DNA of 64,000 bases from a bacterium (lineage in GTDB: Bacteria > Patescibacteriota > Minisyncoccia > Phycocordibacterales > UBA6899): positions 3,607-67,606 of the forward strand of contig JAYTCK010000021.1 of NCBI GenBank assembly GCA_043736515.1, given 5' to 3'. Positions 40,775 to 61,983 of the stretch are shown in pieces; the first letter of the stretch is position 1; every line of letters begins with the position of its first letter. Both the position numbers and the translations under genes were made by a program. Below the pieces are notes generated by a model. The model saw only the letters and a program-made list of their open reading frames with translations, searched no databases and had not been told where the DNA came from.

Positions 40775-40820
40775 GCTAGTATAACACGGTACTTATCCTG
40801 ACAATTGACCGACTGAGTGT

Positions 40821-41222: not shown

Positions 41223-41269
41223 ATCACATAATATGTTAAAAAAACGCGGCTATAGGGCCGCGTTTTGTT

Positions 41270-42349: not shown

Positions 42350-42450
42350 GATATATTCCTTTCAAAAAACGAGTCTCTCTTTACATTAGTACTTAGGAGT
42401 GAAGTGGTCAATCATGAAAATGAATAACCCTTCATGATCACATGGACTGA

Positions 42451-43694: not shown

Positions 43695-43739
43695 GAAATG
43701 ATTCTAGCAATTTTTCTTGGCTTGAGATACACTCCGCAT

Positions 43740-44180: not shown

Positions 44181-44236
44181 TTATCATTCTCAAAAACACT
44201 TCGATCATAGAAATGTGTTCGACTCTATTGAGTTCC

Positions 44237-44265
44237 TATAATCAAAAGCGCACCAATACTGGTAC
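44237..44265 (+). terminator. Rho-independent terminator after the Fur-family gene
   Basis: agcgcacc-aatact-ggtacgct followed by a T-run. Confidence 0.5.
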
Positions 44266-44291
44266 GCTTTTTATTATAGAGACCTCATTCA

Positions 44292-44909: not shown

Positions 44910-44944
44910 ATGAATTTTTTAAATAATAACGGCGATGACTAAAA

Positions 44945-45238
44945 CTATGATTTCCCCTTCTCTACGCTTTCGGCGAGCTTCTTAAGCAACTTCGCCATAT
45001 ATCCCACATTAATCGAGTACGCTATCTCCTGCCCCTCGCGCTCGCTGGCAACGAGGTCTGCCTCTTTAAGGACTTTTAAATGCTGGGATACCGCAGGCTG
45101 CGGCAGTCTAGTTTTGACGGCAATCTCACCCACTGTGCGGGGTCCGCGCATCAGGGCCTCGAGAATACGGTAGCGATTTTCGTTCCCTATCCCCTTCCCC
45201 ATCCGCGCAATCTCTTTGCATAAATCACTCATATGCAT
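44945..45238 (-). CDS. ArsR/SmtB-family transcriptional regulator
   Basis: 97 aa. HTH ENRYRILEALMRGPRTVGEIAVKTRLPQPAVSQHLKVLKEADLV. Confidence 0.75.
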   Translation of the reverse strand: MHMSDLCKEIARMGKGIGNENRYRILEALMRGPRTVGEIAVKTRLPQPAVSQHLKVLKEADLVASEREGQEIAYSINVGYMAKLLKKLAESVEKGKS

Positions 45239-45312
45239 ATATTAGCATATATCTATATTTCAATGCAAGTGGTCTACGAATTAGCAAAGGGTAGTGGGGC
45301 AAAAGCTGTCCG

Positions 45313-48300
45313 CTATTTCGTCTTTCTCTTAAAGCGGATGATTATTTCGTGTGAACGCTTGTCGTCCACCATCTTCACCGCTGTGGTGGGGTGTTTTACA
45401 CCATCCTCAAAAATCTCCATTATCTCGTCGTCGCCCTCAATCGCTTCAAATTTCAGGTTGTACTGGGATTTCCCATACGGCAACAGTGCCGACGCGTGAT
45501 TCCAGCCTTTGGGAAAAGATGGTGAAAATGATAACAAATTTCCTTCACGTTTTATTCCGAGGATATATTCACATATTGTCCGATACAGCACCCCTGCTGA
45601 CGCGGTATACCATGTCCAGCCAGCTCGGCCAGGATATGTGGGCGTTGAGTACACCTCCGCAGCTACGACATACGGTTCTCCCTGGTACAGCAAACTCTTT
45701 TCTGCTGTGTCACTTCGCTTGAACGGATTGACGGCATCAACTACCGCCATTCCCCCGTCAGGATCTCCAGACGCAAAAAGCGCTTGCGCAAGCCACAATG
45801 CTGCATGGTTATATTGTGAAGCATTTTCTCGGACACCGGGGGGGTAATCGGAGATTGTTCCCATGTCGAGTAGCGAGCGAGACGATGGTGGCCACGCAAG
45901 TGGAATGTGTCCCTTGGTGATACCAAGTTCGTGCTTTGCAGACTCTAGTGCCTCAATGCTTTCTTTTGTTTTTCCGTTTGCAAAATATGCCCATGACTGC
46001 GCGACAGAATCGATGCGAAAAGATTTTGCGTGGTTGGTTCCGACAGGCGCTCCCGTATCGGTGAACGCGCGTCGATACCATTTGCCGTCCCAGCCAGATT
46101 TTTGAAGTGCTTCACGATACTCAGTCGCATGGGCACGATAGCGGTTTGCACGGTCACTATCACCGCGCCCTTCGGTAAGGGTGCTCATTTCATCAAGAAT
46201 GGAAATAAGGAACCATGCGAGCCACACACTTTCTCCCTCTCCTTCCACGCCCACACGATTCATGCCGTCGTTCCAGTCTGCTTGTCCCATAAGCGGCAGA
46301 CCGTGCGATCCCGAGGTGAGCGAATGTTCAACAGCACGAATACAATGCTCATACAACGAGCTTTTTTCATCACTTGGCAAGAACACACCAACAATACTTG
46401 GGCGATCCGCCTTGTCAGGAATGTCCCCGGAAAGGTACGGGACTACTTCGTCAAGAATTGCACTATCACCGGTAAATTGAACATACCGCAGGACAACATG
46501 TGGGAGCCACAGATGGGGATCGGAAAGCCGTGTTCGGGCACCGAAATCATTATGAGGTTGCCACCACGAAAGGGCATCTCCTTCTCTGAACTGATGTGCG
46601 GCGGCGGCAAGAATGTGACTCCTCGTCCATGCGCTGTCCAGCCACAGCATAGCGAGCCCATCTTGTAATTGATCACGATACCCATATGCACCTCCAATTT
46701 GGTAAAACCCAAGCCGTGCATGAACGCGTGACGCTATCACCTGCTCTGGAAGAAAGTGGTTGGCGAGTAAAGTAAGAGTGGGGTCGGGGAGGTCGAATTT
46801 TAGAAATGGCGCCATCTCCCATTTGTGTCTTGTTTTTTTGAGCACCTGCTCCGCGTATCCCTTTTCTGTGATCTGAGAAATTGTCTTCTCAAGATCAGCC
46901 ACATTACATTCCCCGAGAAAAAAAGTTGCCTCCTTGCTTTCACCAGGCTCGAGCGACAAGCGCTTCATGAGCACCGCCGCAGGTTCTTCTTCGGAAACAA
47001 TATCACTGGAAAGTCCTATTCGCTTCAGCGCTGCAGGATCGTTAATCGTTCCGTTTCTCCCTAAAAATTCTTCTCGACTAACGGAAAACTCATCGGCGCC
47101 CGTTACGATACCCACAATTGTCCTCTTTTCTACAAATTGATGCCAATAATTCTGGCTGGCTACGAGAGTGTTTCCACTCTGTATTTCAAAAGAAAAATGT
47201 TTTTTTGTTTCTTGAGCCAAGCTTCCCAAAAGCAATTCAAAGTATCCAAAAAGTGAGAGGATTTTATTGTTCCCTGTGTTGTTGGTAAGTTTTACGCGGT
47301 AGTACTTTATCGCCACCCTATCATCAATATACAGCGTCAGCTCAAGCGTTATGCCGAATGCATGGGTCAAATATGTACAGTAGTTTATTCCATAACGGAT
47401 TTCGTATTCCGCATTTTCCTCACCCAGAAGAGGGAGTGGGCTGGCACATACACCCGTTTCCTCATCACGCAGGTAAATAGCTTCGCTCGTAAATTGAGCA
47501 AGTGGGTCATTATATGGAACAGTGAGTTTGTTGTCATAACTATTTGTTGCCCACGTAAATGACATCCCGCGGTCAGTAGCAAGAAACCCAATATGTGAAT
47601 TCGCGACAATGTGGGACCAAGGGCGGGGGGGCTGAATATTTTTGCCATAAAAAATGACATATTCTTTTTGTGCTTTGTCGTACCCGCCAACGCCGTTAAA
47701 AAACTGCAAGTCATTTTTGTCACGTCTCATAAAAGTCTCGTCGGAGATATCCGGGTCTTTTTGCGTTTCAAGTTTCGGAGGATAAGCATGTGCACCTTTT
47801 CGCTCCAAGAGTGTGATCGCATCTATCAGTGAACCTTTTTTTGCATCAATCACGACGCTTGCTGTGTGGAGCACTGCGGCTCGCTCAATCTCACTTAATT
47901 GCTCCGCCCGCGCATGAAAGACGGTGGAAACACTGCGTTCGTCATGGGAACGATGCATGTTCATAAGAAAATCCACCTCATCTTCAAATGTTTTCAAGTA
48001 TCCTCCAGAATGCTCATTAAATATGACAATATCCACAGGAATTCCTTTTTTCACAAAATAAGCATGGCAACTCAACATTTGCCTCACCATGGGGAGATCG
48101 GTTACTCCCGTAACAGTAAAAAGAATAATAGGACGATTCCCTGAAATACTCATTTTCCATAATGAGAGGACCCATGGACGGGCGTCGCTTTCCACATCTT
48201 TTCCTCGCTTCATTGCGCGTGAAAGTGCTAATGAGGCGAGAGTACTGTACGCATGAGCCTGTGAGGAGCTAATCCCATATTCAGAGAGTAAGCGTCCCCC

Positions 48301-51300
48301 CTCACGATCAGCATTTTTTGCGATTCCACGCGTATTTGCGTAGTTTCGATAGCGCTTCAATCCGGAGAGTACTTCCTCTTTTGATTTCCCCACGAGAGAG
48401 ATGAGCGAGACTCGTCTGGATTCATTGGGTCCGAGAGATATGTGTCCAACAAACGCCGCGACACTATCGAGTGTATGGAGGGGTAACTCCGCGTCTGCGC
48501 GAGTAAAATCCTGCAATATCATCGGAGGCGCTATTTCTTTTTTTGAACCAAAAAATACTTTTTTTTCTCTAATTGCTCGAAGATCCTGTATGGAGTGATC
48601 TGCCGTCAGTAGAAAACCCGCTACAATTTGTCGATTGCGGTCTTCAGGGTCTGGGCGCGAAGCGATGATTACAGAATTTCCCCAATGGACTTCTGTTGCT
48701 ACAAATAAATGCTCGTAATTAGGATGTGCAGATTCAGCATCTTTTTTTGAAAGTGAAAGTTCTGCACACACCCCGAATGAAAGCGACTCATCGCTTTCTC
48801 CGGTATTCGTCAGGGTTAATTCTCGCAATTCCCCCGCTTCCCCCGGGAGTACGGTTGCAACAAGCGATGAGTTAATACTTCCTTCTGATTTTTCAAACGT
48901 TACTGCTTGCTCACTTGCTGCAACTGCGTGTTTATCTCCCGCATCTCTCATTGGCATATACGTCGGAGACCACGTTTTACCGTGCGCTCGATCCCGTAAA
49001 TAAAAGAATGTACCAACGGATTCGCGGAGCATGTCAGCAGATGGACGCGTAATCAGTACATTACCCAAGTAACTCTCCCCCGCGCCTGTCGTCGTGATCC
49101 GAGACGAATATTTGTTACTGGAAAGAAATAGAGAAACTGCCTCATGGGTTTTCCAAGGGAGATATTGTCGCTCTGATTCAATAATTTTTGGCGCACGCCG
49201 AACACTTCTTTTTGGCGGAGCGATAAGATTAATTTCTTCCGCCTCTACGTCTTCGGGCATTTTTTCTTCAAATAATTGCGTTGCGACCTCCATTTCTGGT
49301 TCATGAGCAACCATTTTTTGCACCCATCCATCGGCGAGCGCATTCACAATTGATAAAAGAATGAATCCCTGATGGTGTGCATAATAGATTTGAGCGGGCA
49401 CACCGGGAGCGTCATGATGGTCTCCTCTTTTTCTTGCAGTAAAATCAATTGCGTCATAAAATCCATATCGACCAGATGCTCCGACATGTTCGAGATGTGC
49501 AAAATTCTGAAGTGCTCCCTTCGGATCAAGCGAGAGAGCGAGAGCGCTCGTATACGGAGCGACAACAATCGATTCCGAGAGATCGCGCTTAAAGCCGAGT
49601 GAAGCTTCACCGAATGCCTGATAGTGATAATTCTGAGCGGCATCTTGTCGTGATGAAGCAGATTCACCCATCCCCCAAGGAATCCTGTATTGTTTTGCAA
49701 ATCCGCGGTGAGCGGCAATGGCGCGCCGTGCAGACGTGCCCCAAAAGCTTTCGCGGGGTACATCAAAATAGAGCAGTGTCCCTAAATACTCAAAGAGTGA
49801 GCCTGCCCATGAGGCAACAAGGATATCGCCATTTCCGCTTTTGATTAATTTTCTCCCAAGATATCCCCAATGTTTTTGCGGTACATCCCTCTTGGTAATG
49901 GCAATAATACTGGCTGAGTTTGCTTCAGATGCCAATAGGTCATAAAATGCCTCGTCTAATTTTTCTGTTGTGCTGTTAAACCCGATATGGAAGAGCCCGC
50001 GCTCATTATTATAAAGAAACTTGAAATCCATGTTTTTGACATAGAGACTGGCGCTTGCTGCGCAAACGTGAAGTGACTGCTGAATTTTCTTTGTATTTTT
50101 TTCTGATGCCGAAAGCTGAAAAAGCACCTCCGCATACCATGCGCGGGCGGTTTCTTTCTCGGGACCCGGAAGACTGGAGAGCATGATCGCTTCCTCCATT
50201 TCGACTGACTCAATTTCTCGACGAACAATACCATTGGCCAGTTCATCGATATTTGGCATTCGTTGTAAAATCGATAAAATTCGGAGATAGCATGCATGCA
50301 ACTTGGGATCATTCACTACCGCTGAAACAGCGGGAATCATTGTGTAGCCCAGGAACTGGGAAATAGTATCTCGGTAAACGCTCGCCATCGCCTCCACGTG
50401 TCTAGCGGCAAGAAATACTTCATCGAAACGTTCGGTTTTCCCCTCAAGTCGCAATATTTCAAGTGCATTTCTTGTGCGTACAGAATGATGGATGATTCCA
50501 CTCCACACCAAGTCACCGCCTCGCGCAGTTACGGCATCGTTTCCTGTTTTTTGAATAAGTGTGAGCGATTCTCCAACCGACAGCTTTACCTCCTCAAGTA
50601 GCTTCCGCTCATGACGATCGGTTGAAGCTGCCGTGCTTGTCCGATCACACGCTTCCAAAAGCACATGGAGCTCTGCTTCAAGCCCTTCAAACATAACGTT
50701 GCTGATAATTGGAGCTCGACACGCCTCAAGTAATGCTCCGTGAACCGCGACCAAAGAGAGTGCTAAATTTGCACTATCAACACTTGAAACATAACACGGT
50801 GGGAGAGGAGTAAGTCCCTTTAATTCGTACCAATTAAAAAAGTGTCCTTTGTGGAGTGGCATTTTTTCCATAGTTGCAAAGGCACGGCTTATACGTTCGC
50901 AATATTCAGAGATTGACGAAAGTCCTAACACTCTTCCGCCCGATAGCGAGAGAAGATACATGCCGAGATTGGTCGGTGAAATTCCAAGTCCGTGTGAGTG
51001 ACGCTTACTTGGCGGCTCTTCCTGGAGATGGTCGGGCACAAGCCACTGGTCATTTTTAGTAGGGAGATCAAGAAAAAACCAATGTGTGCGTGCAGCGATT
51101 TTGTGCAAATACAAACGATCACTTTTCGAAAAGACAAAAGTATTTTTATAAGAAAAACTTATTATTGCCGCACAAAATGGCGCACAAAGCCAGACAAAGA
51201 TCCACAGAGTAGCAAGAGGATCGTAAATGCTGCCTCTGTGGAATTCAAAATACACCAGCAGGAGAGCGAGGCAGATACTTTGCCACATAAATGTCATAAA

Positions 51301-54075
51301 AACTGTAACAGAATTTTTTCGCTCTAAAGCCACCGCATAGGCAGTCTGCCACTCAAGCAGTTTCTTTTTTGAAACATATAATCGCCACATACTTCGTGCG
51401 ATTGCGTCGAGGGTGATGATGGCATTGTGGAGGACAAACGCACCAAGAAGAAACGTCTTTGCTGAGGCAACTCCCAGCCCCGCGGCCATTGATTTGAATC
51501 TTGCAAAAAAGCTTACTGTTCTGCGCCAGTTTGTGGTCCGTTCAGTAATGTGGAGCAGCGCCGAAACCAGCTGTCCGGAACCAAGTGCGAGGAGTGCGGT
51601 CATACTCCACAGTGAGACCGCCGTCGGAGAAAATGTTGAAAATACCACAGCAATGACCGCCGTAACAGGGATGAGACTGCGTCGTAGATTGTCAAAAATA
51701 CGATAGCGGGCAATGGGAGAAAATATCTCACCACGTTTTAAAAGCCAGTTAATTATCTGCCAATCTCCGCGAATCCATCGATGCAAACGCTGCATGTGCT
51801 CCCGATAATTCGACGGAAATCCTTCAAAAATATGCGCACCACTCGCGATTCCCACTCGTGCATACAAGCCCTCAAGTAGATCATGCGACAGCACAGTATT
51901 TTCCGGCATACGGTCTGCCATTGTTGTTTCAATAGCATCAATATCGTAAATCCCTTTTCCATAAAATATTCCCTCGTTGAAAAGATCCTGATGGAGATCA
52001 GAAACGAGTGAAGAATATGACTCAATCCCAGGAAAACCACCAAAGAGCTGTGAGAATAAAGACGCCGACCCCTCAGCATGGCGGAGTGCGGTTCGCGGTT
52101 GGATGATACCGTATCCCTCAGTAACTATATTTTTCTCCTTATCAATAACTGGGCGATTGAGTGGATGCTCGATTGTCCCAATAAGTGCTTGAGCTGAATC
52201 ACGAACAAGCTCAGTGTCTTCATCAAGAGTTATGATATAACGCACACCGCCCAAATTCTGTGCCGTCATTTGTGCATCCTCCGCATACGATGTTGTTTTT
52301 CCGCGGAGGAGGCCGTTAAACTCACGAAGCTTTCCTCTTTTGCGCTCCCACCCCATAAATACTTTTTCTGCAGGGTTCCATTTTCGCGACCGGTAGAATA
52401 ATGAAAAACGTGTGGGAAGTGAGGGATAACGCGCATTAAGCAGTGCGATTCCTTCCCGGAGTTCATTAACACTTGCTGCATCATCCGGCATTATTTCTTG
52501 CTCTGCATCCTGAAAATCCATCAAAAGCGCATAAAAAATATTTGCGTCATTGTTTGCAACAAAGTTTGTTTCCATTCTCCGCAGTAATTTTTGTGCAGAC
52601 ACACTGTTCCGAAACATTGATGGCACAACTACAACGGTTTTTCGTAAGCTTCCCACTCCCAAAGTGAGGTCGATGGCAGGCAGGGGCTTGGGCGCGAGAA
52701 GCCGTGTGAGCAAAAAATGAGTGAGTGCAGTCGCTATCTCTGAGGTGAGAACGGGTCCAGCAAGCAACAGGACGAGAAATGGAAGCGGGGCGAGCCCTGT
52801 TGTGACACTTAACAGTAGAAGGATGCCAGTGGCACACACGGTGATGGTGCCAATGAATCCGAGATACACTCTTGTGCTATTTGTAAGTATGAATCTTTGG
52901 ATCACATCAAGTGTTGTGGGTGAATACCCCAGTGCGTGTTCAAGGAGCAGCACACCTTTATCTATAAGGTAATACCCTACATGATAGGATCGTTGTGATT
53001 CATCTTTTTGAAGCTCAAAGGCCTGTCGCGCGAGACGGAGTGCCTCGCGTGCAACCTCGATATCGTGAGTGCTGGTTCCGTCTCCTATACGCGCTATTGT
53101 TCGTCTGTACATTGAGCGGGCATCGTCAGTAAGTAGCAAAAATGTACCGGAGGGATCCTTGGCAAGCACTGCATCCACCATGTTGAGTTCAAGCGAAATT
53201 TTATCCCACCGCACTTGGGCAAGATAGCGCAAACTGGAAATGGCATTTGAAATAATCACTGCCTGTGCTTTCTCAGTACGGGATTTCATTGTGGAAAGTT
53301 GCGCATAACTCGCTCCTTGTTTTGCCAAGGAAAGCTTGAGCCATTTACTTACCATACGCACGTCGCCTTCTTTTCCTGTTTGCGCCAAGCGATGTAAAAG
53401 GTGGAGTCCAAATACTTGCGGAACAATAGTGTACTCAAGAGCGAGCACTGCCGTGAGTTTGCGAAGCCGGAGAGGTGCGTCCTTGCGCAATGATGTACTC
53501 ATGATGCGGAGATACCATCGGTCCGCCTCAGACTTTTCTTGCAGGACAGAAATATTTATGTTGATGAGCCTCCGCAAGTCCTCGATAAGCGCGAAGGAGA
53601 GCATACTGGGAAAGACATCAAGCTCGCGCAAAGAGAGCGGAGTACTTTTTTGATATGCTTTTAAAAATTCTATAAGTATTTCACGATCAATACGAGCACC
53701 GGTTTCTTTCACCAGTGCGCGAGCAATCATATACACACGCGGCTGTTTTGCCCCTTCGGTGTCTGTTGATTGAGGTATCCGAAACGTTATTTTTTGTTTC
53801 CAATTCGCGAGCAGTTCGGCTAACGCACCTTCGATAATGTAGAAATTATCAAGGAGGACTTCGATTCCCTGAGTGGCCTGTACACGTTCATTGAGATTAA
53901 AAAGGAGCTCGCGATACGCAGAGCGCGTGCTCATAAGTGTTTTTCTTGCCTTGTGAGCAAAAAACAACGTCCGACGTTCATCGAATGAGAGTTGCGCTGA
54001 TAATGCGAGGTCCTTTGCAAGACGATCGATACCACGCGCCGATGAACGACCGGAACGCATTCCAACCATATGCAC
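45313..54075 (-). CDS. Cyclic beta-1,2-glucan synthase (Cgs/ChvB/NdvB)-like giant multidomain protein
   Basis: 2920 aa (8763 nt). Cytoplasmic N-terminal region, then TM helices (aa ~400-465 and 780-1000). GT-A like domain (aa ~470-775) with ITLDEDTEL and HRWIRGDWQ motifs. YVSSVDSANLA motif. C-terminal ~900 aa with GH94 glycoside-phosphorylase-like pattern (DGMNRVGVEGEGESVWLAWF...), ending in the typical GH94 beta-sandwich tail. Confidence 0.8.
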   Translation of the reverse strand: MHMVGMRSGRSSARGIDRLAKDLALSAQLSFDERRTLFFAHKARKTLMSTRSAYRELLFNLNERVQATQGIEVLLDNFYIIEGALAELLANWKQKITFRIPQSTDTEGAKQPRVYMIARALVKETGARIDREILIEFLKAYQKSTPLSLRELDVFPSMLSFALIEDLRRLININISVLQEKSEADRWYLRIMSTSLRKDAPLRLRKLTAVLALEYTIVPQVFGLHLLHRLAQTGKEGDVRMVSKWLKLSLAKQGASYAQLSTMKSRTEKAQAVIISNAISSLRYLAQVRWDKISLELNMVDAVLAKDPSGTFLLLTDDARSMYRRTIARIGDGTSTHDIEVAREALRLARQAFELQKDESQRSYHVGYYLIDKGVLLLEHALGYSPTTLDVIQRFILTNSTRVYLGFIGTITVCATGILLLLSVTTGLAPLPFLVLLLAGPVLTSEIATALTHFLLTRLLAPKPLPAIDLTLGVGSLRKTVVVVPSMFRNSVSAQKLLRRMETNFVANNDANIFYALLMDFQDAEQEIMPDDAASVNELREGIALLNARYPSLPTRFSLFYRSRKWNPAEKVFMGWERKRGKLREFNGLLRGKTTSYAEDAQMTAQNLGGVRYIITLDEDTELVRDSAQALIGTIEHPLNRPVIDKEKNIVTEGYGIIQPRTALRHAEGSASLFSQLFGGFPGIESYSSLVSDLHQDLFNEGIFYGKGIYDIDAIETTMADRMPENTVLSHDLLEGLYARVGIASGAHIFEGFPSNYREHMQRLHRWIRGDWQIINWLLKRGEIFSPIARYRIFDNLRRSLIPVTAVIAVVFSTFSPTAVSLWSMTALLALGSGQLVSALLHITERTTNWRRTVSFFARFKSMAAGLGVASAKTFLLGAFVLHNAIITLDAIARSMWRLYVSKKKLLEWQTAYAVALERKNSVTVFMTFMWQSICLALLLVYFEFHRGSIYDPLATLWIFVWLCAPFCAAIISFSYKNTFVFSKSDRLYLHKIAARTHWFFLDLPTKNDQWLVPDHLQEEPPSKRHSHGLGISPTNLGMYLLSLSGGRVLGLSSISEYCERISRAFATMEKMPLHKGHFFNWYELKGLTPLPPCYVSSVDSANLALSLVAVHGALLEACRAPIISNVMFEGLEAELHVLLEACDRTSTAASTDRHERKLLEEVKLSVGESLTLIQKTGNDAVTARGGDLVWSGIIHHSVRTRNALEILRLEGKTERFDEVFLAARHVEAMASVYRDTISQFLGYTMIPAVSAVVNDPKLHACYLRILSILQRMPNIDELANGIVRREIESVEMEEAIMLSSLPGPEKETARAWYAEVLFQLSASEKNTKKIQQSLHVCAASASLYVKNMDFKFLYNNERGLFHIGFNSTTEKLDEAFYDLLASEANSASIIAITKRDVPQKHWGYLGRKLIKSGNGDILVASWAGSLFEYLGTLLYFDVPRESFWGTSARRAIAAHRGFAKQYRIPWGMGESASSRQDAAQNYHYQAFGEASLGFKRDLSESIVVAPYTSALALSLDPKGALQNFAHLEHVGASGRYGFYDAIDFTARKRGDHHDAPGVPAQIYYAHHQGFILLSIVNALADGWVQKMVAHEPEMEVATQLFEEKMPEDVEAEEINLIAPPKRSVRRAPKIIESERQYLPWKTHEAVSLFLSSNKYSSRITTTGAGESYLGNVLITRPSADMLRESVGTFFYLRDRAHGKTWSPTYMPMRDAGDKHAVAASEQAVTFEKSEGSINSSLVATVLPGEAGELRELTLTNTGESDESLSFGVCAELSLSKKDAESAHPNYEHLFVATEVHWGNSVIIASRPDPEDRNRQIVAGFLLTADHSIQDLRAIREKKVFFGSKKEIAPPMILQDFTRADAELPLHTLDSVAAFVGHISLGPNESRRVSLISLVGKSKEEVLSGLKRYRNYANTRGIAKNADREGGRLLSEYGISSSQAHAYSTLASLALSRAMKRGKDVESDARPWVLSLWKMSISGNRPIILFTVTGVTDLPMVRQMLSCHAYFVKKGIPVDIVIFNEHSGGYLKTFEDEVDFLMNMHRSHDERSVSTVFHARAEQLSEIERAAVLHTASVVIDAKKGSLIDAITLLERKGAHAYPPKLETQKDPDISDETFMRRDKNDLQFFNGVGGYDKAQKEYVIFYGKNIQPPRPWSHIVANSHIGFLATDRGMSFTWATNSYDNKLTVPYNDPLAQFTSEAIYLRDEETGVCASPLPLLGEENAEYEIRYGINYCTYLTHAFGITLELTLYIDDRVAIKYYRVKLTNNTGNNKILSLFGYFELLLGSLAQETKKHFSFEIQSGNTLVASQNYWHQFVEKRTIVGIVTGADEFSVSREEFLGRNGTINDPAALKRIGLSSDIVSEEEPAAVLMKRLSLEPGESKEATFFLGECNVADLEKTISQITEKGYAEQVLKKTRHKWEMAPFLKFDLPDPTLTLLANHFLPEQVIASRVHARLGFYQIGGAYGYRDQLQDGLAMLWLDSAWTRSHILAAAAHQFREGDALSWWQPHNDFGARTRLSDPHLWLPHVVLRYVQFTGDSAILDEVVPYLSGDIPDKADRPSIVGVFLPSDEKSSLYEHCIRAVEHSLTSGSHGLPLMGQADWNDGMNRVGVEGEGESVWLAWFLISILDEMSTLTEGRGDSDRANRYRAHATEYREALQKSGWDGKWYRRAFTDTGAPVGTNHAKSFRIDSVAQSWAYFANGKTKESIEALESAKHELGITKGHIPLAWPPSSRSLLDMGTISDYPPGVRENASQYNHAALWLAQALFASGDPDGGMAVVDAVNPFKRSDTAEKSLLYQGEPYVVAAEVYSTPTYPGRAGWTWYTASAGVLYRTICEYILGIKREGNLLSFSPSFPKGWNHASALLPYGKSQYNLKFEAIEGDDEIMEIFEDGVKHPTTAVKMVDDKRSHEIIIRFKRKTK

Positions 54076-54195
54076 TAACTATAGCACTCAAGGGCACGAA
54101 AGCAACGCATGTCAATCACCAAAAATTCATCATTCTTTTGGCAAGAGTACTGAAGAGCTAGTATGAGCCTCATGCTCGTGTACGCAACCATGAAA

Positions 54196-54226
54196 AAAGA
54201 CCCTCTCACCGAGGGTCTTTTTCTGT
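54196..54226. terminator. Bidirectional rho-independent terminator between the GH gene and the Cgs-like gene
   Basis: aaaaaagaccctc-tcacc-gagggtcttttt. Confidence 0.6.
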
Positions 54227-54270
54227 AACAGTTTTTAATTACTGAGGTTATTCGTTTATCATCATGCACT

Positions 54271-57200
54271 CTAGTAGACAACTGTCTTGAATGCATTAAT
54301 TTTTATATCTCCAGTGCCATGTACTGCCTCACTTCCAAATTCTATTGAAGCGAGGTACTCCGAGCCTGAGATATGTCCACGTGACTGTAGGTAATTGAAG
54401 AGAGGCTTGAACTCAAGTGAGCCTACTGGCATTGGGTCGAGCATTTGGAATACGAGGAATCCCCAATTCAACGGCCCAAAGTTATCTGCACGATAAAATG
54501 CATAACGCACTCCATCAATAGTGATATTCTCTCTAAACCATGCAGGATTTCTATCAAGACCGTACCCTCCATATGGCACAAGCGCAACCATTATTTCATG
54601 AGTAATTGGTGCTGAGAGGAATCCGGGGCGGTACACTCCGTCACGAGTGAGCCAAAGGTCAAAGGTAAGTTGCCCTGTTCCCGTGGTCACATTCGTTGTG
54701 TTCCATGTACTGCGCGCTGATGTAATCGAGCTGAGGGGGCGTGCAAGTGTAGATCCGGGAGTTGATTGAAATCCAGGTTTCTGTCCGAAGATGATGGAGG
54801 GCCATCCCTTCACCTCGTTTGGACCGTCAGGCCACTGCCAAGTGAAGCGAGCAGTCATGGAGCCATCTGCAGTGAGTCCTGCTGTTCCTGTGCACTGCTC
54901 AAACCATCCCCAGACTCCTTGTTTGCCCCATTGATCATTCAAGAGTTTATATGAACCTACATCATTAATATTTCCATCGTTGCAATTAACAGGAATATTA
55001 CTTATTGGCGCAACCCATCCGCCAGTTGCGGGGGCGGGCGACGGAGCAGGAGCGGGCGTAAATGCAGCTTCCCATGTTGTCCCGTTCCAGTTATACCAAG
55101 CGCCCGCCGTATTCTGATGTGAGATAGTTGTTCCATCATATTTGACCTTGGCGGTGTTTGCAGTAAATCCTGCGTTGGCGCCATTACGTTTGACCTCTCC
55201 ATTCACTACCGTCCATGTATTTCCTTGGACGTCCCTGATACTCGTCGCGGGAGGAATGGTGACTTCAAGTGGATTGGTGGTTCCCACCCATCCTGCACCA
55301 TCCCATGACCACCATCCACCCGCAGAGTTCTGATGGTAGATTGTTGTTCCATTGAAGTGGAGCTTGGTGACGTTTGCAGTGAAGTTTGCATTGACGCCAT
55401 TGCGTTGTACGGTGCTATTCACGATTGTCCACGTATTCTTTGTAGCATCGATAATGTTTGCTGCTGGTGGAACGGTGGTTCCTGCGGGAGAGGTGACGGC
55501 TGTTGGTGTTGCGCCCCCCGTTGGGTTTCCTGTTGCCACCCACGTTACTCCATCCCATAGCCACCATCCTCCAGCTGAATTTTGTTGGAACACTGTTGTT
55601 CCGTCAAAATAGAGATTTGTGACATTGAGACTGTAGCCTGCATTGACTCCGTTGCGCTTCACTACACCCAGGGCGACTGTCCACGTATTCTTTGTAGCAT
55701 CAATAATGCTTGTCGCGGGAGGAATGTTGGTGCCTTTTGGTGAGGTGGTGACGGTACTAGCCGTTGTGGCTGTTGTTGTTTGAGCCACAGGACCCGACAG
55801 CACACTCAATGATGGTGTGTACGCCGAAACTCCACCTGAGGTAGTCATGGCGCGTACGCGATACGTATAGAATGTCGAAGAAACGAGTCCTGCATTGATA
55901 AAGGTTGTTCCTGTGTTTGTTCTGATTTGCGTGAACGTCGTACATCCCATTCCCTGACAGCGCTCAATGAAATAGCCATTCGCTCCAACAGTTGCGTTCC
56001 ATGTGAGTGTAATTTCGGAAGGCGTCACTAGGGTGACACGCAGTCCCGTAGGAGTTGGAAGAGTTGGTGCGGGTGCGGGTGCGGGAGTTGGTACAACAGC
56101 TCCCATTGGATTGGTTGCGGTATATACCCATCCTGTTCCGTCCCATGAATACCACTGTGCGGAAGTATTCTCATGGAATATGGTGGTTCCATTAAAGTAG
56201 AGCTTGGTTGCATTGGCGGTAAAGCCCGCATTGACTCCGTTGCGCTTCACTACACCCAGGGCGACTGTCCACGTATTCTTTGTAGCATCAATAATGCTTG
56301 TTGCAGGAGGAACTATTGTTCCTGCGGGAGAAGTGACGAGTGTAGGGTCTGGAGCTGGGGCGGGAGTAGGAGTAGGAGTTGGAGTAGGAGTAGGGGTAGG
56401 GGCCGAAGACTGCGAAGAAGGATGCCACCAATTCCCTGAAGCGACGATTAGACTGAGAATCTGCAACTCGTTTGAATAGTAGCCGCCAGAAATATTTGGA
56501 CTCATGCGGCCCCAAAGAGTGTTCAGCATATCCTGATATACAGGATCCACCATGGCACCAGCTGTATTTGGACCAGCGAACGAAAAGTCAACATACCCTG
56601 CATTAGTGAGAGGCGTACCATCGAGCTTAAAGCCACCTCGAAGATAATTAGGATTACCGCCTGGAGATTGTTGCATAAAGTTCATGATCTTCATCGTCAC
56701 GTTCTTACTGCGCGCATCACCCGAGGTCACATAGTCTGCGGCCAATCTGAATGGAATACGGTTGGAATTCCAGTCATAGTAGCCTTCAACGCAAGATCCG
56801 TCGCCTCTGCAATTTGTAGAAGGATTGGGGTTGCTGGGAAGACCTTGAATAAATCCAGGAACCAGACCTGTGTTCGGCGCGAAGTTCGTCTGCATCACGT
56901 TAAAAAGTTCAAAGGATTTATTGATAGCTAGATCCCAGAATGGATCACCCGTTGCTTCTTTATAGGTGCGGAAATGACCTATCATATAGTCGGAAGGTCG
57001 CGAAAGATCTTGGTGCGCTTGGCGACCATCTGCAGCAAAATTAAACTTTTTTATCGCGTTGATCGTTCTAATGGCCTCTGCCCTGTAGTTAATAGGGCCA
57101 GCGGATCCCCACTGTACGTCAGCCATGAGCAGTGCCTGCGCAATATCCATGTCGCCGTCTGACGCGTTCCACCCGCCGCCGTAGCTGCCGCACTGGTGGT

Positions 57201-58044
57201 TGATCGCCCATTCCATCAGCGCAGGATCTCTGCTGTAGGCCGGATGAGCACGTGCGAACCGGAAAAGTGAATCAAACTTGTTGCGTGCGTCAGGGTCATG
57301 TCCCGCCATGATGACGGTTATTAACATTCCGTATGAGATTCCCTCCGATACTACTAATTTGTTGGCATCAGGACTAAATCTGACGTATAAATTACCACCG
57401 CAGGTGCCTAGAGCTGTTGCGGCCCATTGATTGTACAGATTCTTGACCGCATTATCCTGATTTGCCTGCGACACATTATTTGGTCGAATACCTGCGATAT
57501 AGGAGGCTTTGTGAGAACCAAATAGGTAACCGCTTCCTGAAGCAGGAGAAGTTGCGGGAGCTCCTGTATCGGTTGAGAGCGTTGGGGATGACAAAGGACT
57601 ACTTACCGTCCCTGAAACTACGGAAAATGTTTTAGGTGTCACATAGAGATAGGTCGTAGCCCACGTAGAATTCCAAACTCCCACCTGCATGGTATACGTG
57701 CCAGGGGGCAGATTTACGGGAGATTGGTAGTCATATATGAACTTTACATTTGTCCCCGCTGGGATACTTGCGCCCGCAAAGTTCTTCCTGGAGATAAGGT
57801 TATTACTGGAGTTATAAATACGGATTTCAACAATAAGATTGGAGAGGCTTGTTGCTGAATGAATTGTTGCACTAGTGTTTTGAATAGCTCCGGCAGTTAG
57901 CGGATTTTTTGAAACTGAAGAACTCACGAGGGTAACTGAGGCTGTTTGTGCAGCTGCAGTTTGCAATCCTGTAAAAAAGAGTCCTGCGATAACGACGAAA
58001 ATGGAAAGCAGCGTGAGGCTAACTGATCCGCGATAAGTATTCAT
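54271..58044 (-). CDS. Secreted multidomain glycoside hydrolase: signal peptide, beta-sandwich, GH8, PT-linker, ~75-aa repeats and FN3, C-terminal GH12
   Basis: 1257 aa. Signal peptide. GH8 catalytic SEGISYGM plus a perfect PROSITE GH8 signature ASDGDMDIAQALLMADVQW (aa ~293-311). PTPTPTPTPTPAPAP linker. Five IIDATKNTWTV..RNGVNA..GTT..WWSWDG..W repeats. FN3 (LTWNATVGANGYFIER..YTYRVRA). C-terminal GH12 (LNDQWG, WQWPDGPNEVKGWPS, nucleophile HEIMVAL, acid/base IEFGSE). Confidence 0.75.
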   Translation of the reverse strand: MNTYRGSVSLTLLSIFVVIAGLFFTGLQTAAAQTASVTLVSSSVSKNPLTAGAIQNTSATIHSATSLSNLIVEIRIYNSSNNLISRKNFAGASIPAGTNVKFIYDYQSPVNLPPGTYTMQVGVWNSTWATTYLYVTPKTFSVVSGTVSSPLSSPTLSTDTGAPATSPASGSGYLFGSHKASYIAGIRPNNVSQANQDNAVKNLYNQWAATALGTCGGNLYVRFSPDANKLVVSEGISYGMLITVIMAGHDPDARNKFDSLFRFARAHPAYSRDPALMEWAINHQCGSYGGGWNASDGDMDIAQALLMADVQWGSAGPINYRAEAIRTINAIKKFNFAADGRQAHQDLSRPSDYMIGHFRTYKEATGDPFWDLAINKSFELFNVMQTNFAPNTGLVPGFIQGLPSNPNPSTNCRGDGSCVEGYYDWNSNRIPFRLAADYVTSGDARSKNVTMKIMNFMQQSPGGNPNYLRGGFKLDGTPLTNAGYVDFSFAGPNTAGAMVDPVYQDMLNTLWGRMSPNISGGYYSNELQILSLIVASGNWWHPSSQSSAPTPTPTPTPTPTPAPAPDPTLVTSPAGTIVPPATSIIDATKNTWTVALGVVKRNGVNAGFTANATKLYFNGTTIFHENTSAQWYSWDGTGWVYTATNPMGAVVPTPAPAPAPTLPTPTGLRVTLVTPSEITLTWNATVGANGYFIERCQGMGCTTFTQIRTNTGTTFINAGLVSSTFYTYRVRAMTTSGGVSAYTPSLSVLSGPVAQTTTATTASTVTTSPKGTNIPPATSIIDATKNTWTVALGVVKRNGVNAGYSLNVTNLYFDGTTVFQQNSAGGWWLWDGVTWVATGNPTGGATPTAVTSPAGTTVPPAANIIDATKNTWTIVNSTVQRNGVNANFTANVTKLHFNGTTIYHQNSAGGWWSWDGAGWVGTTNPLEVTIPPATSIRDVQGNTWTVVNGEVKRNGANAGFTANTAKVKYDGTTISHQNTAGAWYNWNGTTWEAAFTPAPAPSPAPATGGWVAPISNIPVNCNDGNINDVGSYKLLNDQWGKQGVWGWFEQCTGTAGLTADGSMTARFTWQWPDGPNEVKGWPSIIFGQKPGFQSTPGSTLARPLSSITSARSTWNTTNVTTGTGQLTFDLWLTRDGVYRPGFLSAPITHEIMVALVPYGGYGLDRNPAWFRENITIDGVRYAFYRADNFGPLNWGFLVFQMLDPMPVGSLEFKPLFNYLQSRGHISGSEYLASIEFGSEAVHGTGDIKINAFKTVVY

Positions 58045-58267
58045 AATTCCAGTAAGTTAAATAATATATGAACTTAATTATACGTTATGAAAATGCAATT
58101 TAATATTGAGTTGTGGATAACTGTTATTTTTATCCCACTTTCCTGAAAAGTGAACATCATGAATACAAAAACACCCCAGGCTGACCTGAACTGTTTTTGT
58201 TTCAAAACTCCTTCAAGCGGAGAATTTGATCGTTTTAATCATCCTTACCCCGGATGAGCGGTGATCG

Positions 58268-58900
58268 TTATATCAGCGGACACCACAAGCCTGCCTGAGG
58301 TGCGTCGAGCAGTACTCTTCCGGCACCAATATGCTCAAGTGGATTTTCTCCCTCCTTCAAGTGAAGAATTTGCAGATGTGTCTGGTCTATTCCTGAGCTG
58401 CCAAAAAACGGAAGGGCTAGGCTTCCTGAAAGCGCGAGTTCTTCACCCGGACCAAACTGGTGAACATACCAATTGTGTGCCGCATTACCGGGAAAAAGCA
58501 CTCCCGCCGCGCCGCTCGTATTGAGAAACTCCTGAGCGGTGATTACGAGAAGGTTGCGGTAGGTACGCTTACTTGTATTTTTAATATGAACCGTAAAAGA
58601 CATAGTGCCCCCTGAAAAATAAAGTGGGTAATTCCCAAAGTACCTTGTCGGAAGAATAGTTTGCTCGAACACTGGAAAAAAACCGAACGGTGCATAGGTA
58701 ATCCCTGTGGCACTCGCTGTTGTTACACCAAGTGAGCCATGATATTCGACACTATATTCAATAGGTGTAACTTCTCCAATATGCTTTCCATCATGAGGGG
58801 GCAAAAGAGGATAAACCGTTTGAGCACTAGAGATGCCGGGAAAAAGTATGCATGTTGCTAATCCGGCACATAAACCGAGAAGTATTTTATTTGTACGCAT
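58268..58900 (-). CDS. Secreted hypothetical protein
   Basis: 210 aa. Signal peptide MRTNKILLGLCAGLATCILFPGISSAQT. Co-oriented and immediately upstream of the GH8/GH12 gene. Confidence 0.5.
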   Translation of the reverse strand: MRTNKILLGLCAGLATCILFPGISSAQTVYPLLPPHDGKHIGEVTPIEYSVEYHGSLGVTTASATGITYAPFGFFPVFEQTILPTRYFGNYPLYFSGGTMSFTVHIKNTSKRTYRNLLVITAQEFLNTSGAAGVLFPGNAAHNWYVHQFGPGEELALSGSLALPFFGSSGIDQTHLQILHLKEGENPLEHIGAGRVLLDAPQAGLWCPLI

Positions 58901-59188
58901 AAGTTAATTGTGCACAAAGAAAAGCGTCAGAGCAATACACGGGGTGTGGAGTAATCCCATTAAATTTTTATGGAAGGAGTGTCAATCGTGTTCATGACCT
59001 CATCGATGGCTGTGGTGCATCTGTCGACAAGGTTACTTCCTACGGTACTGCACACACCAAAAATGTTGAGGAACTTTCCCGGTAGGAAGCGGGACAGCTG
59101 AGTGAGAAGGCGACTTGGGGCGACAAAGCTGCCTCAGGACCACTTCCTCTTGGTGTTCCTACTATCGCGCCATATAATAAAGAGAGTT

Positions 59189-60400
59189 ATGACACGATAT
59201 AAATATAAGGCTCAGCTCTCAAGCGGCAGAATCACAAGCGGGCTTTCCGATGCTGCCGATGAAAAAGAGCTTTCTGATAATCTGAAAGCAGAAGGAACAT
59301 TCCTTATCACTGCCCGGGTATTTGGAGATAATGAGTGGGATATGGATAGGATAAATATCATCCTTTCCCGGGTTTCTCTCCGTGAAAAAATACTATTTGC
59401 TCGCAATCTCTCCCGGATGATCAAGGCGGGATTATCTATTTCTCGCGCACTCGAGATATTAAAAAAACAGACGGAAAATCTCCAGTTTAAAGAAGTCATC
59501 CAATCCCTGAAGAACGAAGTAAAAAATGGCACCGCTTTCTCAGACGCATTAGCAAAACATCATAAAATTTTTCCCAACGTATTTATTGCCATGGTCCGCG
59601 CAGGTGAAGAATCAGGCGGGATAGTGGAGGCCCTTCGCGTGATTGCTTCCCACATGGAGAATTCTTATACTCTCAGAAAAAAGATGCGGAGCGCGATGAC
59701 CTATCCCGTCATGGTATTCGTGGTGATGATCGTCGTCGCCATATTAATGATGATCTATGTTGTACCCGGACTCGCGTCGACATTCAAGGAAGCGAAGGCA
59801 GAGCTGCCCGCAATGACAAAGTTTATTATTGCTATCAGTGAATTTTTGCAGAATTATTATTTACTTACAGCGGGGATTACGGTGCTCACCGGAGGCGTGT
59901 TTTGGATGTTTAAGCAAACCTCATTCGGGAATCATCTGCTGACATGGCTCATCCTGCGCGCGCCCACGTTTGGAAAATTGGTACGGGAGTACAACGCCGC
60001 AATGACCACACGCACCCTCTCGTCGCTCATGGTGGCAGGGGTGAGCATCGTGCGTGCACTAGAGATCACTCAGGATGTGATGACCAACGTCTACTACAAA
60101 GAAGCGCTCGAACAAGCGCGACGCGACGTGCAAAACGGTATTCCGCTTTCCCGTGTATTTATCAATAACAATATTTTTCCGACGATGGTGGGTGACATGA
60201 TGGAAGTGGGCGAAGAAACGGGTGATTTTTCCGGTATGCTTCTTGAGATCGCACTCTTCTACGAAGAAGAGGTCAATGCGTCCACCGCAGACATGGCGAA
60301 GCTCGTTGAACCCATGCTCATGATAATCATCGCTGTATTTGTGGGTGTCTTTGCTGTAGCAATGTTGACGCCAATGTATTCTCTCGTAAACAATATATGA
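59189..60400 (+). CDS. pilC: Type IV pilus assembly platform protein PilC / T2SS GspF family
   Basis: Two GspF repeats (ISRALEILKKQ..., VRALEITQDV...) and three TM segments. Start trimmed to MTRYKYKAQ. Putative promoter TTGGTG-17-TATAAT at ~59150-59180. Confidence 0.85.
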   Translation: MTRYKYKAQLSSGRITSGLSDAADEKELSDNLKAEGTFLITARVFGDNEWDMDRINIILSRVSLREKILFARNLSRMIKAGLSISRALEILKKQTENLQFKEVIQSLKNEVKNGTAFSDALAKHHKIFPNVFIAMVRAGEESGGIVEALRVIASHMENSYTLRKKMRSAMTYPVMVFVVMIVVAILMMIYVVPGLASTFKEAKAELPAMTKFIIAISEFLQNYYLLTAGITVLTGGVFWMFKQTSFGNHLLTWLILRAPTFGKLVREYNAAMTTRTLSSLMVAGVSIVRALEITQDVMTNVYYKEALEQARRDVQNGIPLSRVFINNNIFPTMVGDMMEVGEETGDFSGMLLEIALFYEEEVNASTADMAKLVEPMLMIIIAVFVGVFAVAMLTPMYSLVNNI

Positions 60401-60428
60401 TGTTTTTTATCGACTTTGAAAAACCTGC

Positions 60429-60911
60429 ATGTTGATCCGTCACGCACAGCGAAAAGGTGGCGTCACACTCTTGGAGATCATCGTTATCATCAGCACCATG
60501 GCGACACTGAGCGGGCTTACCGTCACTACCTTTGCCGATTTCCGCGCACGAAAATCGTGTGATGCGGCCGTTGCACAAATACTTTCAGCATTAAGTTCTG
60601 CGCATTTTGATACTGTTACCGCAAAAAATGATCTTGAATACGGGATACAATTGCGTGCAAAAGATTATATTCTCTTTTCTGGAAACACTGCTCCCGCATC
60701 GGATACTGACCCCCGAGTACTCTTGCGAGCAGCCCTCCCGGGAAATACAGAAATTACTAATATAAACCTAAGCGGTGGGGGTAGCTACGTTTTTTTTCAA
60801 CGACCGAGCGGCACAACTCCCCAAAGTGGCACATTTACTATACGCTCCACAAGCAAATCGAGCATATTAACCACAGCGACCATACATAAAACAGGTGCGG
60901 TTTCGATTTGA
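60429..60911 (+). CDS. Type IV pilin-like protein (prepilin N-terminal methylation domain)
   Basis: QRKGG^VTLLEIIVIIS shows Gly-1, Glu+5 and a hydrophobic helix. Confidence 0.7.
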   Translation: MLIRHAQRKGGVTLLEIIVIISTMATLSGLTVTTFADFRARKSCDAAVAQILSALSSAHFDTVTAKNDLEYGIQLRAKDYILFSGNTAPASDTDPRVLLRAALPGNTEITNINLSGGGSYVFFQRPSGTTPQSGTFTIRSTSKSSILTTATIHKTGAVSI

Positions 60912-60930
60912 TACCCTGAGAAGTTTACTT

Positions 60931-61455
60931 ATGAATTTATTTTATTTTCACCAGAAAAGTTTTCTCCACAAATCGCTCACAAAGCGGGGCTTCAGCATTC
61001 TCGAGGTTGTGGTGACAACAGGAATTCTTTCTGTTTTGTTTGTGACAATTTCGCACCACCATAAAAAAATAGTCGATGTGGGTTATCTCACCACGCGCTC
61101 GATCCAAGCTAATTTCCTTCTCGAGGAAGGCATGGAAGCAGTAAAATCGCTCCGTGACGAAAGCTGGTCTTTGAAAATTGCCGGTTTGAGCATAGGAACA
61201 CCGTATTATTTATACTGGAGTGGAACAAAGTGGACATCCACCACAACGCCCCAGATGATCGAAAATACCTTTACTCGAACATTTACTGTTGCAAGCACAA
61301 CCCGTGACGTTAATTATGACATTGTGCAATCGGGAGGAACCAACGACCCCGGGACTCGGAAAGTAACAATTAAGGTTTCCTGGAACGCTTTACTTTCTGG
61401 CGAACTGACTTTGGTGAAGGTCGACGGATATATCATGAATATTTTCAGCAACTAA
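60931..61455 (+). CDS. Type IV pilin-like / pseudopilin
   Basis: TKRG^FSILEVVVTTGIL prepilin motif. Start trimmed to MNLFYF. Confidence 0.65.
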   Translation: MNLFYFHQKSFLHKSLTKRGFSILEVVVTTGILSVLFVTISHHHKKIVDVGYLTTRSIQANFLLEEGMEAVKSLRDESWSLKIAGLSIGTPYYLYWSGTKWTSTTTPQMIENTFTRTFTVASTTRDVNYDIVQSGGTNDPGTRKVTIKVSWNALLSGELTLVKVDGYIMNIFSN

Positions 61456-61457
61456 CC

Positions 61458-61973
61458 ATGCATTTTTCACGCTCACAATCAGGGTTTTCTTTCATCGAAA
61501 TGATCGTCTACATCGGCCTTTTTAGCCTGCTTGCGCTCACCATAAGTAACTCGCTCCTCCAATCTGTGCGCGGGTTCAATCAGTTGCGTGCATCGCGCGA
61601 TATTAATGATTCATCAATCATGATCATGGAACGACTGTCCGATGATGTAAAAAATTCTCTCTCGATCGACATGGCAAATAGTACCTTTGGGGCGACCCCG
61701 GGGCGATTGACCCTCAACACCATTAACGCCTCGGGTACTCCTATGGTGATAGAATATTATGTTTCCGGCAACATTCTCCGGATAAAAGAGAATTCTGTCG
61801 ATACGGGCTCGCTTATGATTTCAGCGGCACGCATCGAAGCATTGGTCTTTTACCTTATCAACACAGGAAATACGACTGGGGTGAAAACAGAATTACACCT
61901 CAAGTCAACCCGTGGCATTGTTTCCGCCAATGACCATTTTTATAACACCACCATGCTGCGAGGTACTTATTAA
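61458..61973 (+). CDS. Type IV pilin-like / pseudopilin
   Basis: SQSG^FSFIEMIVYIGLF prepilin motif. Confidence 0.65.
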   Translation: MHFSRSQSGFSFIEMIVYIGLFSLLALTISNSLLQSVRGFNQLRASRDINDSSIMIMERLSDDVKNSLSIDMANSTFGATPGRLTLNTINASGTPMVIEYYVSGNILRIKENSVDTGSLMISAARIEALVFYLINTGNTTGVKTELHLKSTRGIVSANDHFYNTTMLRGTY

Positions 61974-61983
61974 TGACAAACCC

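Follow-up and report, generated by a model that had tools for sequence, protein, structure and literature searches.

Within the 64,000-nucleotide stretch of bacterial DNA that was analysed here (the window; contig JAYTCK010000021.1 of assembly GCA_043736515.1), a single unbroken open reading frame (ORF) of 1257 codons was identified on the minus strand, the product of which carries a glycoside hydrolase family 8 (GH8) domain towards its N-terminus and a glycoside hydrolase family 12 (GH12) domain at its C-terminus. It is considered likely that the gene stands on its own in a Lloydbacteria-like bacterium of the Candidate Phyla Radiation (CPR), that it encodes a secreted endo-beta-glycanase of multi-modular build, and that it is not functionally tied to the neighbouring gene for a presumed cyclic beta-1,2-glucan synthase (Cgs). 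A preliminary description of positions 54271-58900, made from the sequence alone, had proposed one secreted chain combining GH8, GH12, fibronectin type III (FN3) and repeated domains resembling carbohydrate-binding modules (CBMs), a composition that was borne out, the catalytic residues being present. As to the range, the 1257-aa ORF was found as claimed, but the stated positions also include a separate 210-aa gene. Taken by themselves, the catalytic domains are unremarkable members of two well-known glycanase families.

In a whole-protein Pfam scan the GH8 domain scored 65.4 bits with PF01270 (cut-off 24), whereby positions 21-337 of the 341 positions of the profile were covered. Its closest solved structures were the beta-1,3-1,4-glucanase BGlc8H from Paenibacillus sp. 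X4 (5XD0; 2e-68, 36% identity) and ChoK (1V5C; 7e-58, 34% identity), CelA of C. thermocellum being farther away (1e-26), and no BcsZ-type cellulase structure was present among the 16 PDB matches of the domain at E<=0.01. Such end-to-end homology to solved GH8 structures implies that the domain would adopt the (alpha/alpha)6-barrel fold. Conservation was assessed in an alignment of 33 homologous domains and two reference chains (n=35), in which Glu234, Asp296, Asp298, Asp300, Asn426 and Arg429 are invariant (35/35). Glu234 resides in the SEGISYGM block, rightly named as catalytic beforehand, and aligns with 5XD0 Glu95 and with ChoK chain residue 74 (i.e., Glu122, the offset being 48). This residue corresponds to the catalytic acid, which is Glu95 in CelA and Glu122 in ChoK. 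The base of the ChoK-type subgroup is a Glu in the loop before a Y-N-x-x-R motif (ChoK Glu309), the Asn of which replaces the base Asp278 of CelA. The numbering of both ChoK residues is supported by the offset from chain residues 74 and 261, which is 48 in either case. The GH8 signature reported earlier was recovered in a regular-expression search, in which residues 294-312, ASDGDMDIAQALLMADVQW, matched the PROSITE-type pattern A-[ST]-D-[AG]-D-x2-[IM]-A-x-[SA]-[LIVM]-[LIVMG]-x-A-x3-[FW].

The likeness to BGlc8H, Cel8Pa and ChoK comprises homology over the whole domain, the acid Glu, the Asp-Gly-Asp-x-Asp signature, the location of the putative base in the preceding loop and the Asn found where CelA has its base Asp. 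In contrast to BGlc8H and ChoK, with which the domain shares 34-36% identity, the window enzyme possesses an Asp at the base position within a one-residue-longer 'GDG' loop between two cysteines, and whereas those chains comprise ~390-410 residues, here the GH8 domain is embedded in a multi-domain protein of 1257 aa. Cel8Pa, a characterised enzyme that has the 5XD0 enzyme as its own nearest characterised relative, prefers barley beta-glucan, lichenan, amorphous cellulose (PASC) and carboxymethyl cellulose (CMC) as substrates, acts weakly on chitosan and xylan and is inactive on laminarin and xyloglucan (PMC7490527).

The GH12 domain went unreported in the whole-protein Pfam scan; as an isolated domain it reached 27.1 bits with PF01670 (cut-off 27, E 5.7e-6) over profile positions 3-204 of 207. 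At E<0.01, 14 solved GH12 chains were matched over residues ~24-246 of its 250, the best being 2JEM (B. licheniformis enzyme, 1.4e-11), 4H7M (4.8e-9) and 2BW8 (1.8e-8), and with this whole-domain match the previously proposed C-terminal GH12 domain proved genuine though divergent. Glu1150 aligns with the only position at which 2JEM (Gln) and 2JEN (Ala) differ, a difference that is consistent with the pattern of engineered nucleophile mutants, while Glu1239, the GH12 acid/base, is matched to the Glu in the F-G-T-E block. Alignment of a 30-member GH12 clade confirmed both assignments, the nucleophile being kept in 29/30 and the acid/base in 30/30 members. Relatives of the domain are numerous (47-61% identity), and the tight conservation of the clade, with 56 invariant columns among 12 sequences, argues that the domain is not decaying. 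Doubt about its activity had been raised because the residue following E-I-M-[VIL] is Ala here instead of the usual Trp. This doubt was resolved: Ala is found in 17 and Trp in 7 of the 30 clade members, hence Ala is a trait of the clade and its majority state, both catalytic Glu are conserved, and Ala1154 was rejected as a mark of an inactive enzyme. Likeness to the B. licheniformis enzyme (2JEM/2JEN) and to Cel12A of Trichoderma and Rhodothermus extends over the whole domain (1.4e-11 to 3e-8) and includes both catalytic Glu as well as the NNxWG, VKxYP, DLW, EIM and FGxE blocks; what sets the window clade apart is its score at the Pfam threshold, the Ala that follows EIM[IV] and the insertion 'PYGGYGL', which is conserved. 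The two-headed beta-glycanase is genuine and probably active.

The protein is predicted to be secreted. Its N-terminus comprises Arg5, a hydrophobic core of 20 residues (8-27) and an AAA|Q site at residues 30-33, and in the hydropathy profile this segment is the sole N-terminal hydrophobic stretch, no other membrane-spanning segment being seen outside the GH8 core. Paired cysteines in the GH8 (412/418), FN3 (696/701) and GH12 (1021/1051) domains would fit an extracellular protein; both GH12 cysteines are near-invariant in the clade.

Between and ahead of the catalytic domains, six further domains were recognised (Table 1). An N-terminal beta-sandwich domain of ~113 aa (residues 33-146), overlooked in the preliminary description and followed by a Ser/Thr/Pro linker that leads to the GH8 domain (171-548), scored 27.8 bits with PF14524 (Wzt_C; cut-off 30.4), and its relatives P0003 and P0063 carry a precomputed PF14524 match. 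Copies of this Wzt_C-like domain with ~50% identity, often in tandem, precede GH8 (L001) and GH12 (L003, L005, L006, L011) enzymes in other organisms, and therefore the domain is common to both enzyme clades. The Pro/Thr linker behind GH8 is present as described. As to the proposed FN3 domain, its score with PF00041 (residues 664-739, 24.2 bits) falls just below the cut-off of 25, and the assignment is secured by 46% and 43% identity to the FN3 units of P0027 and P0029, respectively, both of which carry PF00041.

The remaining domains are ~75-aa repeats, of which five had been counted, whereas motif and profile searches, by which the repeats were defined, identified four (571-646, 767-841, 851-925 and 926-997), these being 54-71% identical to one another. 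A fifth repeat was dismissed, as a sensitive profile built from 48 sequences yields four copies for the window protein and five for its closest relative (L004, see below); a self-BLAST of the 1257-aa protein gave no off-diagonal matches. Nor could the repeat be placed in a known CBM family: neither Pfam (E<=10) nor NCBIfam gave a match, the best PDB hits were insignificant (E 0.11 by sequence, 0.4 by Foldseek), and the 1257-aa protein as a whole is without an NCBIfam match. Structure modelling returned, very confidently, a two-blade propeller-like unit, and in the model of three tandem modules no closed propeller was formed. A profile search of 1.84 billion representatives revealed 2,382 proteins at E<=0.001 (1,248 at E<=1e-10), in which the repeat is present as many as ten times. 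Within a sample of 76 such proteins the repeat is joined to GH5 (12), GH16 (6), GH26 (3), GH39 (2), GH71 (1), KRE6-type (1) and beta-helix (2) domains, and others carry ricin-type or CBM60 modules. Repeated fusion to unrelated glycanase families is a classic mark of a carbohydrate-binding module, and the repeat is hence a probable, as yet undescribed, module of this kind. The propeller lectins (tectonin 2, 5FSB/5FSC; fish-egg lectin, 4RUQ; RSL) show no significant sequence or Foldseek match to it, and unlike them the 75-aa modules occur singly or split by other domains and are appended to glycoside hydrolases. The module is the most novel and least expected part of the finding.

Table 1. Features of the glycanase gene and its flanks, with positions as numbered in the window.
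Feature	Position	Strand	Basis
Whole gene, 1257-aa modular glycoside hydrolase	54271..58044	minus	ORF list; stop codon 54271-54273
Signal peptide, Sec-type (predicted), residues 1-32	57949..58044	minus	Hydropathy profile; cleavage site inferred
Wzt_C-like beta-sandwich accessory domain, residues 33-146	57607..57948	minus	PF14524 27.8 bits, below 30.4
GH8 catalytic domain, residues 171-548, ChoK/BGlc8H subgroup	56401..57534	minus	Pfam, PDB matches, alignment
Pro/Thr-rich linker, residues 549-570	56335..56400	minus	Read from sequence
Repeat R1, residues 571-646, two-blade propeller-like, probable carbohydrate-binding module	56107..56334	minus	Profile match 6.7e-31; alignment
FN3 domain with 'ERCQGxGC' motif, residues 662-748	55801..56061	minus	PF00041 24.2 bits; homologous FN3 units
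Repeats R2 (767-841), R3 (851-925), R4 (926-997) in tandem	55054..55746	minus	
GH12 catalytic domain, residues 1008-1257; Glu1150, Glu1239, Asp1129	54274..55023	minus	PDB matches, alignment
Intrinsic terminator-like hairpin with T-run	54193..54222	minus	49 nt past stop codon, between glycanase gene and Cgs
Terminator-like hairpin after 210-aa gene	58160..58204	minus	-20.1 kcal/mol, z = -3.9

Among 185,579 species-representative genomes, only one close relative was found, located on a 7.3-kb contig (L004) of a Candidatus Lloydbacteria metagenome-assembled genome (MAG). Its protein of 1236 aa is 94% identical to the window protein in the GH12 domain and 56-76% identical in the FN3 domain and the repeats, its order being DUF4886/SGNH-like domain, FN3, repeat, FN3, four repeats and GH12. 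Similarity of the DNA extends from the first repeat (window ~56400) to ~75 nt past the stop codon. As L004 shares the repeat-GH12 body and has a different N-terminal head, this body is a cassette that has been joined to differing catalytic heads, and the protein was built by domain shuffling. The other head (L004 2769-3800, plus strand) is a non-GH8 domain of ~340 aa with a weak DUF4886/SGNH-like match, possibly an esterase.

Full-length relatives were found neither in a search of 5.8 billion proteins nor in the metagenome contigs searched with the single protein, and an alignment-based metagenome scan returned 10 mostly short GH12 loci, none of which encodes GH8 or Cgs. Likewise, no protein holding both Pfam domains was present among ~70 GH8 or GH12 relatives, and a literature search retrieved no paper on a GH8+GH12 fusion. 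The two halves occur separately elsewhere, as in P0003 (two Wzt_C-like domains, CBM4_9, GH8), P0063 (two Wzt_C-like domains, GH12) and P0061 (one repeat, GH12). The closest single-domain relatives (L001, L002, L003) lie in unrelated gene contexts, and their contigs resemble other bacterial groups, which suggests horizontal acquisition. The source genome itself is Lloydbacteria-like and thus belongs to the CPR, because L004 is of Lloydbacteria, the 210-aa neighbour has its relatives in Lloydbacteria and Liptonbacteria MAGs and the gene backbone is syntenic with GCA_001819035.1. Glycoside hydrolases are widespread in CPR genomes (PMC5581439).

The glycanase gene is flanked by a 210-aa ORF upstream (58268..58900) and by a co-oriented 2920-aa ORF downstream (45313..54075), the latter at a distance of 195 bp. 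The 2920-aa ORF (minus strand) encodes GH94 and glucoamylase-type domains, as expected of a Cgs; a literature search for a cyclic glucan synthase in Patescibacteria gave no match. The glycanase gene had been described as co-oriented and directly upstream of this gene; the orientation stands, but a terminator-like hairpin lies between the two. This hairpin (54193-54222) possesses a 12-bp stem and a folding energy of -21 kcal/mol (z = -4.4), with 0/200 shuffled sequences folding as well, and as it is also flagged on the plus strand it may work both ways. L004 possesses the same stem with a differing loop, and there the next gene is unrelated and in opposite orientation, no Cgs being located downstream. 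Since terminators are found on both sides, the downstream one being conserved in L004, the glycanase gene looks monocistronic, that is, a transcription unit of its own. Promoter-like hexamers were seen at 58091-58063, past the hairpin that follows the 210-aa gene, such sites being no commoner in the region than in shuffled sequence. Scans of the window for tRNA genes and Rfam families gave no matches.

The 210-aa protein (58268-58900, minus strand) has a signal peptide and no Pfam or NCBIfam match; its family is confined to Lloydbacteria, Liptonbacteria and related MAGs (42-78% identity). It had been taken for part of a common locus with the glycanase: a signal peptide is present, but the gene turned out to belong to the conserved backbone, and what lies downstream of it differs from relative to relative. 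In four independent relatives (L016-L019, L020/L021, L023 and L024) it is followed by a SurA_N-like gene, and three of these (L016-L019, L020/L021, L023) continue with a short-chain dehydrogenase gene (adh_short), a small ORF, Hydrolase_4 and VTT, the contig of L024 diverging after SurA_N; in a fifth relative (L022) a convergent glutamate dehydrogenase gene follows instead. The 210-aa, Hydrolase_4 and VTT genes are present in the window as well (64%, 41% and 66% identity, respectively). Between them, within the compared region 40154-58900 of the window, a variable slot holds 15.9 kb with the glycanase, Cgs, an LUD-domain gene and BacA, as compared to 2.3 kb in three relatives (L016, L020, L023). 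Glycanase and Cgs are thus accessory genes of one variable slot, an arrangement that permits co-acquisition and falls short of showing a shared function. Farther out, a divergent cluster resembling type IV pilus or type II secretion systems was seen (59102-63696, plus strand), encoding, besides a 594-aa protein without Pfam match, a platform protein of the PilC type and three pseudopilin-like proteins that carry methylation motifs at their N-termini, as was a 562-aa protein (38002-39690, minus strand) that unites an L,D-transpeptidase (YkuD) and a D-alanyl-D-alanine carboxypeptidase (Peptidase_S11) in one chain.

Several observations weigh against the reading of a free-standing gene for an active, two-headed glycanase. 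Glycanase and Cgs reside in one lineage-specific block of 15.9 kb, which makes co-acquisition possible. At the position of the GH8 base the window protein has Asp415, where 27/35 sequences have Glu and 8/35 Asp. The GH12 domain shares only ~25-30% identity with any characterised enzyme. With regard to the assembly, an independent Logan contig (L015) equals window 59036-56527 and confirms, at 100% identity, the upstream gene together with codons 1-506 of the glycanase gene, but it ends at 56527, inside GH8 and before the repeats, and as a consequence the junction of the GH8 and GH12 halves rests on one assembly; the repeats R1 and R2 share 74 nt exactly, which makes a mis-join conceivable. Finally, the exact 1257-aa product is absent from a collection of 15 billion proteins, although that collection does contain three neighbouring proteins encoded on the same 68-kb NCBI contig; the gene may have been called differently or flagged as a pseudogene, or the sequences may differ.

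Cyclic beta-1,2-glucan is a host-interaction factor in Brucella, Agrobacterium and rhizobia. On this background the 15.9-kb block and the type IV pilus genes beside it may be imagined as an island with which an episymbiotic CPR bacterium interacts with its host. The GH8-GH12 enzyme, anchored by its modules, would open the host's coat or matrix of polysaccharide, while Cgs would supply cyclic beta-1,2-glucan. As a whole this scenario is rather unlikely, and it is more likely that the 75-aa module represents a CBM family not described before, the fold type of which is unused by known CBMs.

A rival proposal is that glycanase and Cgs form one functional unit, either the locus for beta-glucan synthesis and remodelling that was put forward initially or an island for interaction with a host. 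The Cgs glucan would then be trimmed, released or remodelled by the glycanase in the manner of BcsZ. Adjacency, common orientation and the short spacing of the two genes speak for it, as does their residence in a block that replaces the SurA_N-like gene, adh_short and small ORF of three independent relatives, and GH8 endoglucanases are known in beta-glucan synthase operons. However, the strong terminator between the genes is kept in L004, where Cgs is lacking, and a Cgs is missing from all 14 loci in which GH8 or GH12 relatives are encoded. The product of Cgs is beta-1,2-glucan, but GH8 and GH12 enzymes cleave beta-1,4 bonds, and neither family is known to include a beta-1,2-glucanase. Six binding-type modules moreover suit an enzyme that acts on an insoluble or external polymer. 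As compared with BcsZ, the GH8 enzyme of cellulose-synthase operons, the window gene likewise adjoins, in the same orientation, a large beta-glucan synthase gene, but its GH8 domain belongs to the ChoK/BGlc8H subgroup, a terminator separates the genes, the synthase is of the beta-1,2 and not the beta-1,4 type, and the synteny is unconserved. A BcsZ-like role was rejected on the grounds of subgroup, terminator and synteny, the proposed synthesis and remodelling locus found no support, and a functional unit of any kind is considered improbable. Attack on external or host polysaccharide, which had been named as the other option, is the better reading.

Alternatively, one of the two catalytic domains might serve as a non-catalytic binding module, either GH8, owing to the exchange of its base from Glu to Asp, or GH12, owing to its divergence and its score just at the Pfam threshold. 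Against this, the base loop 'R-G-D-G-S-C' of the window protein recurs as a 'GDG' variant in four other natural GH8 proteins (P0005, P0006, P0009, P0012), and in chemical terms an Asp can serve as a base, so that the GH8 base appears conservatively substituted rather than lost. All other catalytic and signature residues of both domains are invariant or, as with Glu1150 (29/30), nearly so, and the GH12 clade is tightly conserved as detailed above. A loss of catalysis in either domain is hence given little chance.

Least probable of all is that the layout with two catalytic domains arose as an assembly artefact, by joining of separate GH8-repeat and FN3-repeats-GH12 genes via repeat DNA or by misassembly of the repeat number, as the 74-nt identity, the end of the Logan contig, the missing protein record and the separate occurrence of GH8 and GH12 in all ~70 relatives would allow, for the flanking backbone genes (the 210-aa gene upstream, Hydrolase_4 and VTT downstream) are ordered and oriented as in three relatives, which chance would rarely reproduce on both sides, the frame is continuous through 3.8 kb with even GC content and even GC at third codon positions (GC3) across the domains, and L004 documents that large fusions of a catalytic domain with the repeat-GH12 body exist in the lineage.

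Multi-catalytic glycanases are well known. A characterised enzyme with two catalytic domains is TcChi of Thermococcus chitonophagus, which possesses the order GH12-CBM2-CBM2-GH18 and in which each catalytic domain displays broad beta-glycan activity (PMC13629093). Like TcChi, the window protein unites a GH12 domain and a catalytic domain of a second family in one chain with binding modules in between, but here the partner is GH8 instead of GH18, the modules are not of the CBM2 type, and the host is a CPR bacterium.

For the free-standing secreted glycanase, a mode of action can be suggested. The Sec signal peptide would export the protein, which would then form a flexible chain of independently folded domains. 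Its six non-catalytic domains, i.e., the Wzt_C-like sandwich, the four two-blade modules and the FN3 spacer, would hold the enzyme on its polysaccharide. Near one end, the inverting GH8 domain, belonging to the chitosanase and beta-1,3-1,4-glucanase subgroup, would act with Glu234 as acid and Asp415 as probable base, and at the other end the retaining GH12 domain would use Glu1150 as nucleophile and Glu1239 as acid/base, whereby both domains are expected to cut beta-1,4 bonds. Considering the characterised relatives, likely substrates are soluble or amorphous beta-glucans (mixed-linkage glucan, amorphous cellulose), chitosan and possibly xyloglucan. Such polymers may be supplied by the surroundings or may belong to a neighbouring or host cell, as part of its surface or matrix, and the oligosaccharides released would be available to a fermentative organism.

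The pairing of GH8 and GH12, unseen among the ~70 relatives, was thus encountered in the reduced genome of a CPR bacterium, for which a secreted enzyme encoded by 3.8 kb is a large investment and hence a pointer to a target of feeding or attachment. The comparison with L004 shows a recent, cassette-like swapping of catalytic heads on a conserved repeat-GH12 body and clearly illustrates how modular glycanases come about. The 75-aa family comprises at least 2,382 sequence clusters and is found repeatedly beside GH5, GH16, GH26, GH39, GH71, GH8 and GH12; if the repeat does bind carbohydrate, it would constitute a new CBM family and would allow for a better annotation of thousands of environmental enzymes.

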